DNA of 64,000 bases from an uncultured Thiotrichales bacterium (lineage in GTDB: Bacteria > Pseudomonadota > Gammaproteobacteria > UBA4575): positions 32,575 to 96,574 of the forward strand of contig CAZTNC010000002.1 in assembly GCA_964614915.1 (NCBI GenBank), in the 5' to 3' direction. Made by a program: the position numbers and the translations under genes. The notes beneath the pieces are model-generated. The model searched no databases, was not told where the DNA came from, and worked only from the letters and a program-made list of their open reading frames with translations. Position 1 is the first letter of the stretch, and each line of letters opens with the position of its first letter. Below are positions 8,153 to 12,332 of the stretch, piece by piece.

Positions 8153-9685
8153 ATGAGAGAAGTTTTTAATCGGTGGTTAGCAATTGCGTTGCTGGCATCG
8201 CTGGCCATTTCAGGGACTGCCTATGCAGGCCCGTACGGCTACGATCTGCACAACGTGCTGGCTCCACGTTCAGCGGGTATGGCGGGTACCAGTATTGCCA
8301 AGCCTCTGGATAACGTGTCGGCAATCTTTGGTAACCCTGCCGCATTGACGGACTGGACGGGAACGGAATTTACGTTCGGTGCTACCTACTACAAGCCTGA
8401 AGTGCGTTTAGATCATGCTGGTGGTTTAGGTCTCCCAACCTACGCTGGCAGTGTACCGCAAGCTACACTTGATCTTCCTGCCGTGGCCCCTAATGATGTG
8501 GTGCCAGGTGTAGCCCTTGGATGTAATAGTGCTGAGGGTTTTTGTATAACTGATTCGTATTTTGATGATGCGGTCAACGGTAACGAGGGCTATATCGTAC
8601 CCCAGGTTGGTGTGACACAGGATCTGCGGCCGTTAGGCTTGCCAGCTGTATTGGGTGCTGGTCTGACAGCAGTTTCAGGTATTGGCGTGGAGTTTCGCCA
8701 TGTGGAAGAAACACTGGGACTGGGAGCTGAGTTCATTGTCCTGGGCGCTAACTTCTCACTTGGTTGGGAGCTCAATGAACAGGTCTCCATCGGTGGTGCT
8801 GCGACAGTAACGTACGCTTATCTAGACCTCGGTCTTGCAGCGACCTCCGGTGTCACGCATGACACTGGGATGCGCGGAACAATAGGTATTACCTATGACG
8901 ACATCGTTCCAGGCACAAGACTGGGCCTGTTCTACATGACGGAACTGCAGCATGTGTTTGATGATATCGTCGCAGTACCAGCTTTTGATCACCAAGACTA
9001 CAATCGTAGTGGTGCGGTAAATAGTGGGGCTGCGCTAGATGGGTATGGAGCCCAAGGACCTGTTCGCTATGCTTCAATCCCTATTGAAGAGCCGCGCACC
9101 ATTGGTATCGGTATCGCCAACGAGACATTCATGGATGGCAACCTGCTGATCGCCGCCGATGTCATGTGGAAGAACTGGGAAGAAGCTGATTTCTGGGGTG
9201 ACGTGTATGAGGACCAAATGGTCTACAGCGTCGGTGCCCAGATGAAGATGGGCAACTGGCGTTTCCGTGCTGGTTATGGCTACGCGGATGATCCAACAGA
9301 CCGTGATGCAGATCACATCAAGGGCCTGCCCGCTGTGTGTTCATCTGCAACTAATTGTAATGCTATTCCAATAGGTAGCCCAGATGGTTCACCATTATTG
9401 CTAGGACAATCTGTGCTGGAATTCCTCCAAGCTTCACAAACAGAGGTAATCTACCGTCATCGTGCTACGTTGGGAGTAGGTTATATGGGATTCCTGGCCC
9501 CGTTCCTGAACATCGACGGCCATGTTGGTGTGCAGTTCAAGGAGCGTAACCATTACAGTGCAGGTACACCGCCGCTTAACGCGACAACCCATCCTGCAGC
9601 GCCCCTTGCAACGGCAACTACTACTGCGGCAGATGTCTGGTCGTGGCATGCAGGCTTTGCACTGACGTGGAACTTCCAGTACTGA
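8153..9685 (+). CDS. FadL/OmpP1/TodX-family outer-membrane channel for hydrophobic substrates
   Basis: Sec signal (AYA cleavage); hatch motif SAGMAGTSIA...SAIFGNPAAL typical of the FadL family; alternating beta-strands; aromatic C-terminal beta-signal WNFQY. Confidence 0.88.
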   Translation: MREVFNRWLAIALLASLAISGTAYAGPYGYDLHNVLAPRSAGMAGTSIAKPLDNVSAIFGNPAALTDWTGTEFTFGATYYKPEVRLDHAGGLGLPTYAGSVPQATLDLPAVAPNDVVPGVALGCNSAEGFCITDSYFDDAVNGNEGYIVPQVGVTQDLRPLGLPAVLGAGLTAVSGIGVEFRHVEETLGLGAEFIVLGANFSLGWELNEQVSIGGAATVTYAYLDLGLAATSGVTHDTGMRGTIGITYDDIVPGTRLGLFYMTELQHVFDDIVAVPAFDHQDYNRSGAVNSGAALDGYGAQGPVRYASIPIEEPRTIGIGIANETFMDGNLLIAADVMWKNWEEADFWGDVYEDQMVYSVGAQMKMGNWRFRAGYGYADDPTDRDADHIKGLPAVCSSATNCNAIPIGSPDGSPLLLGQSVLEFLQASQTEVIYRHRATLGVGYMGFLAPFLNIDGHVGVQFKERNHYSAGTPPLNATTHPAAPLATATTTAADVWSWHAGFALTWNFQY

Positions 9686-9707
9686 TTGAAAGTCAGTAGT
9701 CTTATGG

Positions 9708-9743
9708 AAAAAGGGGTGGCATATGCCACCCCTTTTTTTGTTT
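9708..9743. terminator. Rho-independent (bidirectional) terminator after the fadL-like gene
   Basis: AAAAAGGGGTGGCATATGCCACCCCTTTTT palindrome followed by a T-run. Confidence 0.9.
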
Positions 9744-9914
9744 TCTGACCATACTCCCAAAAGTTCCACTTGAGAAAACAGGGACTAGTTCCAATTAGAA
9801 CCCTGTATGGTCTAAATTATTAGAATTTTAAATTCAGTCATAGGCAGGCCAAATCAAGCATATTTTCTCAACATCGCCGTCCAATTCTGTATAATTCATC
9901 TGGTTGATCAATCG

Positions 9915-9930
9915 TTTCTGTATACAGAAA
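9915..9930. promoter_or_regulatory. Perfect 16-bp palindromic operator upstream of the RiPP precursor
   Basis: TTTCTGTATACAGAAA; extra half-site TTCTGTATA at 9885-9893 overlapping a TATAAT (9890-9895). Confidence 0.6.
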
Positions 9931-9982
9931 TTGTGCCTTGCTCCGCAGGACACACATAACAATTGTTGGAGGTTTTATAACG

Positions 9983-10363
9983 ATGGATAAGAAACGTCGT
10001 GATTTTAATAAGCTAATGGTGGCTGCAGCAGCTGGATTGATGGCAGGAAGCCAGACGGTTGCCTTGGCGGGCCACCCAGGCCACGAAGGTTGTCCGAAGC
10101 ATAGCTGTAAAGGCCAAAACGAATGCAAGGGCAAGGGCGGTTGCAAATCAAGCGACAACGGTTGCGCAGGCAAAAACTCATGCAAAGGCAAGGGTGGTTG
10201 TGACCCAGCCCACACGTATGAGAAGCATGCTTGTAAGGGCCAGAATGCCTGCAAATGCCAGGGTGGCTGCAAGTCAGGTGACAACGGCTGTGCCGGTAAA
10301 AATTCATGTAAAGGCAAGGGCGGATGCCAGCTACCGGTTGACCCCAGCCACATGGAAGGATAA
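9983..10363 (+). CDS. Cys-rich MNIO RiPP precursor (BufA2/bufferin-like) with Tat signal peptide
   Basis: GGAGG RBS then ATG 9983; KRRDFNK twin-Arg, h-region, ALA|G cleavage; 14 Cys in repeated CxG(Q/K)NxCKGxGGC units; lies directly upstream of DUF692. Confidence 0.85.
   Translation: MDKKRRDFNKLMVAAAAGLMAGSQTVALAGHPGHEGCPKHSCKGQNECKGKGGCKSSDNGCAGKNSCKGKGGCDPAHTYEKHACKGQNACKCQGGCKSGDNGCAGKNSCKGKGGCQLPVDPSHMEG
10097..10327 (+). repeat. Two 35-codon direct repeats inside the precursor (10097-10201 and 10223-10327)
   Basis: KHSCKGQNECKGKGGCKSSDNGCAGKNSCKGKGGC vs KHACKGQNACKCQGGCKSGDNGCAGKNSCKGKGGC. Confidence 0.9.
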
Positions 10364-10421
10364 GCAGTACCTAGCAACACATTTGTTGTAAAGTTCTGAC
10401 ATTTCCAAAAACGGTTTGAGC

Positions 10422-10459
10422 ATCGACAGGGCTGCTGGATCCAGCATGCCCCTGTCGAT
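10422..10459. repeat. Long stem-loop between precursor and MNIO gene
   Basis: ATCGACAGGG...CCCTGTCGAT arms enclosing the palindrome TGCTGGATCCAGCA. Confidence 0.65.
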
Positions 10460-10515
10460 TGCTTGAATACTTTCTCTGCTGGTAACATGCTTACCAGACA
10501 AATCTGATTCACAAG

Positions 10516-11376
10516 GTGGTTTCTGTGTCTGTAAAAAACCGCTGGGGCTTTCCTGACCTTGGACTCGGAATCGGACTGCGCACAGTCCATTTCAATCACA
10601 TCCTCGAACACTGGCCCAAGGTCGACTGGTTCGAGATCCTGTCCGAGAATTTCATGGACACCGAAGGAAATCCCGTGCGTGTGCTGGACCAGATTGCAGA
10701 ACGCTATCCGATAGTCATGCACGGGGTCTCCATGTCGATTGGCAGCACGGACCCCATCGATTTTGAATACTTCGGAAAGCTGAAGGCCCTGGCCGAACGG
10801 GTGAACGCTCACTGGCTGGGGGACCATGTATGTTGGACCGGGGTGCATGGAAAAAACGGCCACGACCTCTATCCACTGCCCTACAACGAGGAATCCTTGG
10901 CCTTTCTGGTGGACCGGATCCGTACCGTTCAGGATTTTCTTGAGCGTCCCCTGATCCTGGAGAACCCATCGACCTACATGGCTTTTGCAAACTCCACTAT
11001 GCCCGAGGAGGAATTCCTGGCCCGCATGGCCGAGGAGTCGGATTGCGGACTGCTACTGGACGTCAACAACGTCTACGTCACCTGCCGCAATCATGGGCTG
11101 GATTCCAACGCTTACCTGGATGCGATCCCGTACGACCGGGTGGTGCAGATTCACTTGGCCGGACATACCGACAAGGGCACGCATTGCATTGATACGCACA
11201 ACGGCAGAGTCATTGACCCGGTGTGGGACCTGTATGCCGAGGTGCAGCGCCGTGCCGGAAACCGTGCCACGTTGATTGAGTGGGATGCCGACATCCCTTC
11301 GTTTGAAGAGGTCCATGCCGAGGTTTTGAAGGCGGCGCAATTCCGCCACATGACCGAACTGCGTCATGCCTCGTGA
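10516..11376 (+). CDS. Multinuclear non-heme iron oxidase (MNIO, DUF692; BufB/HvfB/MbnB/TglH/ChrH family)
   Basis: [61 protein letters not shown] motifs; GTG start uncertain. Confidence 0.95.
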
Positions 11377-12220
11377 TGATTCGCGGCTGGAGAGCCTCGA
11401 GCAATGGATGTATTCGGTCATCAGCCACCCCGAGGGAGCCGAGGCCGGAGTCAAAGCAAGTTCCAAACCAGGCAGCCAAGCAGCACATGACCTGGAACAA
11501 ACCGTCCTGCCTTCCGATAAGCTGACTCCACTGGAGTGCGTGTCGGTTTACGCCGATATGTACTTCTGGCGGTTCATCGACATCATGTCGGAGGAATACC
11601 CGACGGTGCAGCACATTCTCGGAAAGGAGTTATTCAACCAGGTGGTCAGGGATTATATTGCACGCCATCCCTCAACACACTACAACCTCAACCGCCTGAG
11701 CATCAAGTTCCCGGATTACCTGCTCAAGGAAGCCGGGGAGATTCCACATCAGCCTTTCGTGGCTGCAGTTGCCACGGTTGAACGTGTCATGGAGGATGCC
11801 TTCGATGACCCGCATCGGGAGAAGATCTCCCCGGAAGCGATACAGGGCATCCCGGGGGAGCAATGGCCCGACATCCGGCTGCAGTTCAACCCGGCCCTGT
11901 ATCTGCTGGAACTGGAGTATCCGGTCAATGACTACATGACCGCAGTGTATGAAAACCGCCATATGGACATCCCACAGGCCCAGAAGACATTTGCAGTGGT
12001 GTATCGCTCAAACTACACGGTCTGGCGTGAAGATCTCGACTATGAAAGTTACCTGCTTTTATCGCGGCTCAAGGACGGGGAGTCCTTGGGTGAGGCCTTG
12101 GAGAACTGCACTCAGCAAGAGGGGGTTGATGCCGACAAGATCACGGCCAGCCTGGGCGAGTGGTTTCAGCAATGGACAGCCCAGGAATTCTTCTGCGGTC
12201 TCGAAATCGATTCTGATTGA
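11366..12220 (+). CDS. DUF2063 (BufC/HvfC-like) MNIO partner with RiPP-recognition/DNA-binding-like N-terminal domain
   Basis: Overlaps MNIO stop; [10 protein letters not shown]...[12 protein letters not shown]...Y...HPS, FPDYL, VATVER, EYPV motifs typical of DUF2063. Confidence 0.85.
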
Positions 12221-12332
12221 CTCCAGTCTGAGCCTGTAAAAGATCTAAGGACCATAGAATGGTTCAAGCCTGATAGGTGCCAAATTGCAAGCCCACCAGA
12301 GGCCAAGCTAGGGCGAGTAAGAGTTCAGTGTG

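Follow-up and report, generated by a model that had tools for sequence, protein, structure and literature searches.

Bufferins are described as the largest group of RiPPs (peptides synthesized on ribosomes and modified post-translationally) made by MNIOs (oxidative enzymes dependent on multinuclear non-heme iron), and as a widespread answer to copper stress (PMC11626156, PMC12452194). Of the Buf2-type (BUF_6/12Cys) precursors, 90% have six conserved Cys residues; the others have twelve, in duplicated 6-Cys domains (PMC12452194). Both the chemistry and the induction by copper have been reported for Buf2 of Caulobacter, in which the four central Cys of the six carry a mass shift of -4.03 Da, while the two outermost are left free and probably form a disulfide (PMC11626156). 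In bufferins, the conversion of central Cys to 5-thiooxazoles (-4 Da each, with absorbance near 305 nm), copper binding and copper induction are known only for Buf1 and Buf2 of Caulobacter. An earlier note, made from the DNA letters alone, described an MNIO/DUF2063 RiPP cluster in an uncultured Thiotrichales bacterium, within a stretch of 64,000 nucleotides (assembly GCA_964614915.1, contig CAZTNC010000002.1, positions 32,575 to 96,574), which is referred to here as the window. We report that this three-gene locus, designated bufABC, is very probably a Buf2-type member of the known bufferin system, and that its precursor, BufA, carries a signal peptide of the twin-arginine type.

Bufferins have been described with Sec signals, and the published survey used SignalP 6 to pick its candidate precursors, on the criterion of "a predicted Sec signal peptide" (PMC12452194). 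The authors of that survey named the problem that this creates: a Sec signal should export the precursor before it is modified, and something must hold it back. They also cited preliminary evidence for Buf1 that the recognition sequence includes the signal peptide (PMC12452194). The statement in the earlier note that known family members carry Sec-type signals agrees with the published descriptions, which in their main texts mention only Sec. The terms "Tat" (twin-arginine translocation) and "twin-arginine" were absent from the main texts of PMC12452194, PMC11626156, PMC8692599 and PMC12538549. A full-text search for bufferins and Tat returned two papers, both on an outer-membrane copper channel, and a search for MNIO and twin-arginine returned one unrelated paper. 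The spreadsheet supplements of PMC12452194 contained no signal-type labels and none of five RR motifs, a search that did not cover its figures S1-S3. In the open papers searched, we found no account of the Tat-type signal seen in much of the Buf2 family, a scope that does not take in subscription papers or database annotations.

The bufABC locus and its maturation enzymes

The window contains three co-oriented genes, bufA, bufB and bufC, at positions 9983-12220, as determined from the list of open reading frames (ORFs) and the sequence, and all of the features in the earlier note were found in place in both. Like buf2 of Caulobacter vibrioides (CCNA_02999-03001; PMC11626156, PMC12452194), the locus has the order precursor, MNIO and DUF2063 partner. 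The two loci also share a BufB-equivalog MNIO, the 6-Cys module, a cleavable N-terminal signal and the lack of a DoxX gene. In contrast to Buf2, for which the main texts speak only of Sec, the signal of the window precursor is of the RRxFxK twin-arginine type. The window precursor further differs from Buf2 in scoring under the BufA2 cut-off and in having two extra Cys (C37 and C92), and no regulation of the SigF/NrsF type was seen.

BufB scored above the equivalog cut-off of NF050167 (354.6 versus 310 bits), and the only NCBIfam match of the precursor was BufA2; the proposal of an MNIO/DUF2063 RiPP cluster was thereby borne out. BufB fell under the cut-offs of the HvfB, ApyH, ChrH and MbnB models. 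It reached 247.2 bits with the HvfB model (cut-off 360) and 48.6 bits with the MbnB model TIGR04159 (cut-off 325), and thus was not recognized as an MNIO of either the HvfB or the MbnB type. The nearest solved structure was 3BWW (E 8.4e-45), and MbnB entries of the PDB matched at E 8e-10 or weaker. Translation of bufB may start at the in-frame GTG at 10525, which lies behind the sequence AAGGTGG.

The N-terminal DUF2063 domain of BufC was well above its cut-off of 27.2 bits (64.5 bits). Its C-terminal part matched NGO1945_C (PF22106), a domain of the RiPP recognition element (RRE) type, weakly, at 25.3 bits and just under the cut-off of 27. A PDB sequence search returned no solved relative of BufC.

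Related loci were collected from a scan of species-representative genomes, which yielded 79 loci. They occur in small-genome Gammaproteobacteria known from metagenome-assembled genomes (with precursors 90-94% identical), Steroidobacteraceae, Woeseiaceae, several classes of Acidobacteriota, and Planctomycetota. An MNIO gene lies directly downstream of the precursor in 74 of the 79 loci. The order precursor, MNIO, DUF2063 that is found in the window is kept in 69, and most of the misses are contig ends. A DoxX gene was near in 8 of the 79, as judged with a single query of limited sensitivity.

The genome of 1.72 Mb holds three MNIO/DUF2063 loci, which is a lot of such machinery for a small genome. 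One of the other two, L002 (G000:C19:281747-285520), is of the Buf1 type and consists of a DUF2282 precursor (75.8 bits), then an MNIO, then a DUF2063 gene; its precursor has a Lys-type signal without RR. The other, L003 (G000:C8:33751-37518), consists of DoxX, MNIO and DUF2063/NGO1945_C genes, and no convincing small Cys-rich ORF with a signal was found within about 3 kb on either side of it. A six-frame search with NF050166, a model that matches BufA in two stretches, gave no match in the control genome of C. vibrioides, where BufA2 was defined. Six-frame searches with this short Cys-rich model therefore lack sensitivity and miss true members, and the BufA2 genes of the whole genome may be undercounted.

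BufA is a duplicated member of the BufA2 family

Of 8000 candidates scored, 6791 were relatives of BufA at E <= 0.001. The comparison with hidden Markov models (HMMs) that the earlier note had asked for was run, and it gave a single NCBIfam match, NF050166 BufA2 ("BufA2 family periplasmic bufferin-type metallophore"), in two stretches. All 104 aligned relatives matched NF050166, with a best E of 1.1e-25. Among 28 relatives scanned singly, 3 passed its 60-bit cut-off, and two of these three were RR-type. Because BufA2 is the sole family matched by BufA and all 104 relatives match its model, BufA is read from its sequence as a divergent branch of the BufA2 family and not as a separate family.

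BufA carries four C-x5-C-x5-C units, a GHPGHEGC start, a DPAH linker and a DPSHMEG tail. The earlier note had described four CxG(Q/K)NxCKxxGGC units; the pattern is present, but it is better read as two 6-Cys modules plus two extra Cys. Each module follows the pattern C-x5-C-x5-C-x6-C-x5-C-x5-C, and the 12 Cys of the two are invariant in 18 of 18 aligned sequences. In the same alignment H82, which precedes the first Cys of module 2 by two residues, is also invariant, and H40, at the equivalent place before module 1, is conserved in at least 90% of the 104 sequences. BufA shares the extra residues C37 and C92 only with the three closest relatives. The His-rich start noted earlier is likewise present as GHPGHEGC but is not conserved in these three relatives, which have GEGYKGC, GDPDSGC and GEAATGC. 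Among the BUF_6/12Cys (Buf2/BufA2) bufferins, BufA thus represents the duplicated form with 12 Cys, to which two lineage-specific Cys are added. The suggestion of a distinct precursor subfamily was not upheld, since the 12-Cys duplicated Buf2 form, at about 10%, is already contained in PMC12452194 and all 104 relatives match NF050166. The expectation of up to four modification sites also has to be revised: by analogy with Caulobacter Buf2, where four central Cys of six are modified (PMC11626156), up to eight Cys of BufA may be modified, four per module.

Some relatives depart from this architecture. In the Steroidobacteraceae-type precursors L026, L031, L035, L073, P0069 and P0101, module 1 lacks two Cys (CKGxGGGENAGKNxC), which leaves 10 or 11 Cys, and decay of the duplicated module seems to be under way in some lineages. 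The non-RR precursors L051, L056, L059, L068, L070 and L074 (Thermoanaerobaculia/Sulfomarinibacter) have an extra CGGKxGCGG between the signal peptide and module 1, and loci with this motif total 14-15 Cys.

A search of PDB sequences with the precursor profile gave one hit at chance level (E 0.47).

A twin-arginine-type signal on BufA and part of its relatives

BufA begins with MDKKRRDFNK, followed by a Gly/Ala-rich hydrophobic region (h-region) and the cleavage site A27-L28-A29|G30. The twin-Arg signal KRRDFNK with ALA|G cleavage that had been pointed out earlier was confirmed, and the motif is kept in relatives. The consensus of Tat signals is S/T-R-R-x-F-L-K. Among the 120 best full-length hits to BufA, RRx[FLIVMA] was present within the first 90 residues in 109, and RRxPhix[KRQ] in 101. 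This ranking is biased by the query's own signal, and a search of 50%-identity representatives with the mature part only was added. In this core-only search, RR was called by pattern in 43 of the 150 best representatives, 4 of them doubtful by eye because the RR was not N-terminal. About 28 of the 150 had a lipobox, and the remainder had Lys-type N-terminal regions (n-regions). The RR forms spanned both architectures, 6-Cys (21) and 12-Cys (16), and RR-type signals thus occur independently of the duplication.

Of the 79 related loci, 78 could be classified by signal: 41 were RR-type and 37 were non-RR (26 Lys-type and 11 lipobox), and 1 was unreadable. Three pattern calls were corrected by eye, namely L008 and L043, which had been misfiled as non-RR, and L007, which had received a lipobox tag. 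The RR-type loci span Gammaproteobacteria, Acidobacteriota and Planctomycetota. In most of the 41, K, R or Q stands four residues after RR, and the start Met stands two before it. RR and non-RR signals are homologous and share an AG..AG h-region. G18 does not vary among the 18 aligned sequences, and each of G18 and G22 is found in at least 90% of the 104.

On a quick IQ-TREE phylogeny (LG+G4, 71 rows) of the adjoining MNIO proteins, the RR label required 5 changes versus a shuffle mean of 24, and none of 500 shuffles was as low. The label persisted to about 60% MNIO identity. The RR label is therefore a stable, clade-wise trait; because kin share labels, the tree result speaks for such a trait and does not show function.

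Compared with Sec signals, Tat signals have a weakly hydrophobic h-region and a basic C-terminal region (c-region). Mean h-region hydrophobicity was 1.93 in RR signals (n = 41), 2.11 in non-RR signals (n = 26) and 2.39 in lipobox signals (n = 11), and a basic residue followed the h-region in 21 of 41 RR versus 5 of 26 non-RR signals; in both comparisons the rows are kin and not independent. Both shifts of the RR forms go in the direction expected for Tat. The c-region of BufA itself is without a basic residue. Two planctomycetal loci, L034 and L040, combine RRxF with a lipobox-like Cys after the h-region (ATLGC and AGIGC), and in these loci a bufferin precursor may bear a lipoprotein signal of the Tat type.

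The genome encodes the machinery that such a signal would engage. The genes tatA, tatB and tatC lie in one operon (L004), with matches to PF02416 (TatA, TatB) and PF00902 (TatC, 228.5 bits). The strict pattern RR.F.[KRQ] in the first 20 residues, followed by an uncharged h-region, was present in 4 open frames of the 1.72 Mb genome. BufA is one of them, and 2 of the other 3 are TIGR01409-positive Tat substrates. Among the 104 relatives, 12 gave weak matches to TIGR02811 (formate_TAT) and 4 to TIGR01409.

Proposed pathway and alternative explanations

In the proposed pathway, the three genes would be transcribed from their own promoter, with a palindrome as possible operator and a hairpin that may favour precursor over enzyme message. 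The first 29 residues of BufA would act as its export signal and, probably, as the leader. In the cytoplasm, the iron enzyme BufB and BufC, with its DUF2063 and RRE-like domains, would bind BufA, the signal peptide being part of the recognition site, and oxidize the central Cys of both 6-Cys modules to 5-thiooxazoles, up to eight in all. The modified mini-protein would then be exported, most likely by TatABC because of the conserved RRxFxK signal, and cut after A27-L28-A29. In the periplasm, the outer Cys would form disulfides, and the thiooxazoles would bind and buffer copper, perhaps with help from the conserved His. In this scheme, both the chemistry and the function in copper buffering are inferred by homology with Caulobacter Buf1 and Buf2.

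The confidence that we attach to the parts of this explanation differs. Membership of the locus in the bufferin system, as a Buf2-type bufABC operon, is held with high confidence. The routing of BufA by Tat, as predicted from its signal, is held with moderate confidence. The explanation as a whole, a Buf2-type bufABC operon whose product is exported by Tat and acts as a periplasmic copper buffer, is given a probability of about 0.6.

Several observations weigh against it. At the level of the family, BufA reached 50.7 bits with NF050166, under the cut-off of 60, and 22.3 bits with Pfam DUF7640, under the cut-off of 28.1; BufC reached 60.4 bits with the HvfC equivalog NF050145, far under its cut-off of 142; and an AlphaFold2 model of BufA, built from a 104-row alignment, was unusable (mean predicted local distance difference test score, pLDDT, 50; predicted template modelling score, pTM, 0.19). 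At the level of export, BufA has Asn at the Leu position of the Tat consensus, TIGR01409 (TAT_signal_seq) found 8 sites in the genome at E <= 10 without BufA among them, and a direct scan of BufA with this model gave nothing at E <= 10 (cut-off 16.7 bits). There are also non-RR relatives with clearly homologous signal peptides and the same 12-Cys core, which means that the architecture does not depend on Tat, and RRxF could instead be a motif through which BufC recognizes the precursor. At the level of function, no copper-resistance gene and no sigma or anti-sigma pair adjoins the operon, as judged from a Pfam scan of 15 neighbouring ORFs in which anti-sigma factors were not sought by name.

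In a rival reading, BufA is exported by Sec, as characterized bufferins are, and RRxF is part of a leader read by BufC/BufB or a neutral lineage trait. The published description of bufferins as Sec-exported (PMC12452194) and the lack of a TIGR01409 match speak for it, as does the h-region and core common to the non-RR relatives. The signal peptide is also unusually conserved, as seen in G18 and G22, which would fit a leader role, and the preliminary evidence that places the signal peptide within the recognition sequence (PMC12452194) points the same way. On the other hand, RR with F at +2 is invariant in all 41 RR-type loci and K, R or Q occupies +4 in most of them, a pattern identical to the Tat consensus. 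The hydrophobicity and c-region charge are shifted Tat-ward, the strict pattern otherwise picks HMM-confirmed Tat substrates (2 of the other 3), and some relatives match Tat models. We regard Sec export of BufA as a real but doubtful alternative. The metal is a separate question. The chemistry could be that of a bufferin and the main job something other than copper, either another soft metal (Ag, Au, Hg or Zn) or redox or sulfur stress. The lack of copper-resistance genes and of a copper-responsive sigma/anti-sigma pair nearby fits this idea, with the limit on anti-sigma factors given above, as do the MerC fusions, the "gold-induced" gig operons and the possible wider roles described in PMC12452194 and the related Microbulbifer mmr cluster, which is not induced by copper (PMC12538549). 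However, the characterized MNIO/DUF2063 thiooxazole and oxazolone products in PMC11626156, PMC12452194 and PMC12538549 all bind copper, and the conserved His that precedes each module's first Cys, with the His and Met of the tail, would suit this metal. We therefore consider a main role other than copper unlikely.

That BufA could be an unmodified, metallothionein-like periplasmic Cys-rich protein, and its proximity to an MNIO gene meaningless, is hardly credible. The precursor does have a very high content of Cys, Gly and Lys, precursor genes that stand alone with no MNIO have been reported (PMC12452194), and 5 of the 79 loci lack an adjoining MNIO. Against this stand the MNIO directly downstream in the other 74, across three phyla, the 11-nt overlap of bufB and bufC, the single promoter region for all three genes, and the score of the MNIO above the BufB equivalog cut-off.

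The part of these findings that we met in no paper searched is the twin-arginine-type bufferin signal, which is probably real and mechanistically relevant; the rest is routine for the described family. If about half of the close relatives and about a quarter of the core-only representatives use Tat, the problem of premature export may be solved differently in part of the family, because transport by Tat follows translation and accepts folded cargo. Such precursors may then be missed or mislabelled in genome-mining screens that demand a predicted Sec signal. A bolder version of the Tat reading is that a large, cross-phylum Buf2 clade moved from Sec to Tat. In that case, BufB/BufC would first read the signal as leader, and TatBC would read it a second time. 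As folded proteins can pass through Tat, the heterocycle-bearing mini-protein could already be folded, and perhaps charged with Cu(I), in the cytoplasm and carry copper out as a form of sacrificial efflux, instead of only buffering the periplasm. This scenario is improbable at present. If the shift were true, the sister clades with homologous RR and non-RR signals would offer a natural experiment on how RiPP precursors that bear a signal avoid premature export.

Comparison with other copper-binding systems

Buf1 (BufA1, DUF2282) shares with the window locus the enzyme pair and the presumed thiooxazole chemistry and copper buffering. It differs in its 4-Cys core, which belongs to a different sequence family, and the copy in this genome has a Lys-rich n-region without RR. 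Buf1 loci often include DoxX and a sigma/anti-sigma pair (PMC12452194).

The oxazolins (HvfA, Buf_EGKCG) and the Microbulbifer bulbicupramide (MmrA) resemble BufA in their repeated Cys-Gly cassettes, the MNIO/DUF2063 pair, copper binding, and a cluster without a protease or dedicated exporter. The oxazolin cassette is EGKCG, whereas that of BufA is C-x5-C-x5-C, and BufA has no EGKCG repeats. The oxazolin modification was first reported as an oxazolone-thioamide.

A twin-arginine signal on a periplasmic copper-handling protein has a counterpart in CueO, a multicopper oxidase that is exported by Tat. CueO is unrelated in fold and function, and it is a cofactor-requiring enzyme and not a RiPP. 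Methanobactins are secreted by dedicated transporters. In the MbnABC system, as in bufABC, an MNIO and a partner act on Cys of a ribosomal peptide, and the product binds copper. The MbnB models match BufB only weakly, and methanobactin precursors have a leader and no signal peptide and serve copper uptake (PMC12452194).

Regulatory elements and genomic surroundings

The coordinates of the features of the locus are given in Table 1.

Table 1 Features of the bufABC locus, in positions of the window
Feature	Position	Strand	Remarks
Putative intrinsic terminator of the upstream FadL-like outer-membrane protein gene	9708..9737	+	Perfect 15+15 nt inverted repeat, then T run (repeat search)
Candidate sigma-70-like promoter	9868..9895	+	TCAACA, 16 nt spacer, TATAAT; 10/12 matches
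Perfect 16-bp palindrome TTTCTGTATACAGAAA	9915..9930	.	Between the -10 hexamer and the bufA ribosome-binding site
Ribosome-binding site GGAGG	9968..9972	+	10 nt before the bufA ATG; kept in relatives
bufA, bufferin-2-type precursor	9983..10363 (stop included)	+	126 aa, 14 Cys, ATG start
Predicted signal peptide, residues 1-29	9983..10069	+	Cleavage after A27-L28-A29, before G30
Twin-arginine motif K4-R5-R6-D7-F8-N9-K10	9992..10012	+	RR and F invariant in 41/41 RR-type loci
6-Cys module 1, H40-C73 (C42, C48, C54, C61, C67, C73)	10100..10201	+	Alignments
6-Cys module 2, H82-C115 (C84, C90, C96, C103, C109, C115), with lineage-specific C92	10226..10327	+	Alignments
C-terminal tail QLPVDPSHMEG, with His and Met	10328..10360	+	P118 invariant in 18/18
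Strong RNA hairpin, bufA-bufB spacer	10414..10468	+	Folding energy and inverted repeat
bufB, MNIO (DUF692) bufferin maturase	10516..11376	+	PF05114 (MbnB_TglH_ChrH) 352.5 bits; NF050167 MNIO_BufB 354.6 bits
bufC, partner protein, N-terminal DUF2063	11366..12220	+	Overlaps bufB by 11 nt; PF09836 64.5 bits

Promoter-like sites in the region were not more numerous than in shuffled sequences, and the site upstream of bufA is thus only a candidate; its -10 region is identical in the three closest relatives. The palindrome TTTCTGTATACAGAAA is identical in L005 and L007 and has two changes in L006. It is unique in the genome at <=1 mismatch, and its left half repeats TTCTGTATA, which overlaps the -10 hexamer. 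The palindrome may be an operator or a hairpin of the 5' untranslated region. As the site of a wider regulon it was rejected: the two genome sites with 2 mismatches do not adjoin other buf loci.

The spacer between bufA and bufB (10361-10520) has a minimum free energy of -52.2 kcal/mol (z -3.77), and none of 200 shuffles was as low. As predicted from this fold, the hairpin may act as a 3' stabilizer or a partial attenuator and yield more precursor than enzyme message.

The operon is flanked upstream by the terminator of a FadL-like outer-membrane protein gene and on the other side by a convergent DUF4156 lipoprotein gene. The upstream gene (8153-9685) encodes a 510-aa FadL/Toluene_X-like protein (37.1 bits), and its putative terminator sets the operon apart as its own transcription unit. 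Neither flanking gene was retained as part of the system; their synteny with the operon is confined to the three closest relatives, and the functional unit is therefore the three buf genes. In the relative L005, the FadL-like gene is inverted.

In the Pfam scan, the neighbours were ClpB-like, desaturase, two glutathione S-transferase-like, FadL-like, DUF4156, ProS, LysR, AI-2E transporter, DapA, NlpB, Dxs and IspA genes, plus two ORFs without a match. DoxX and the sigma-factor families had no match in the 15 ORFs scanned (window 28-21887), which agrees with the earlier statement that neither DoxX nor an ECF sigma factor is nearby; for the anti-sigma factors in that statement, the limit given above applies.

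At least half of the sampled words of 9700-12300 were present in 2 sequencing runs, both labelled sponge metagenome, one of which may be where the DNA came from. No RNA run was among those listed, and small shares of the words occurred in other sponge and reef runs.

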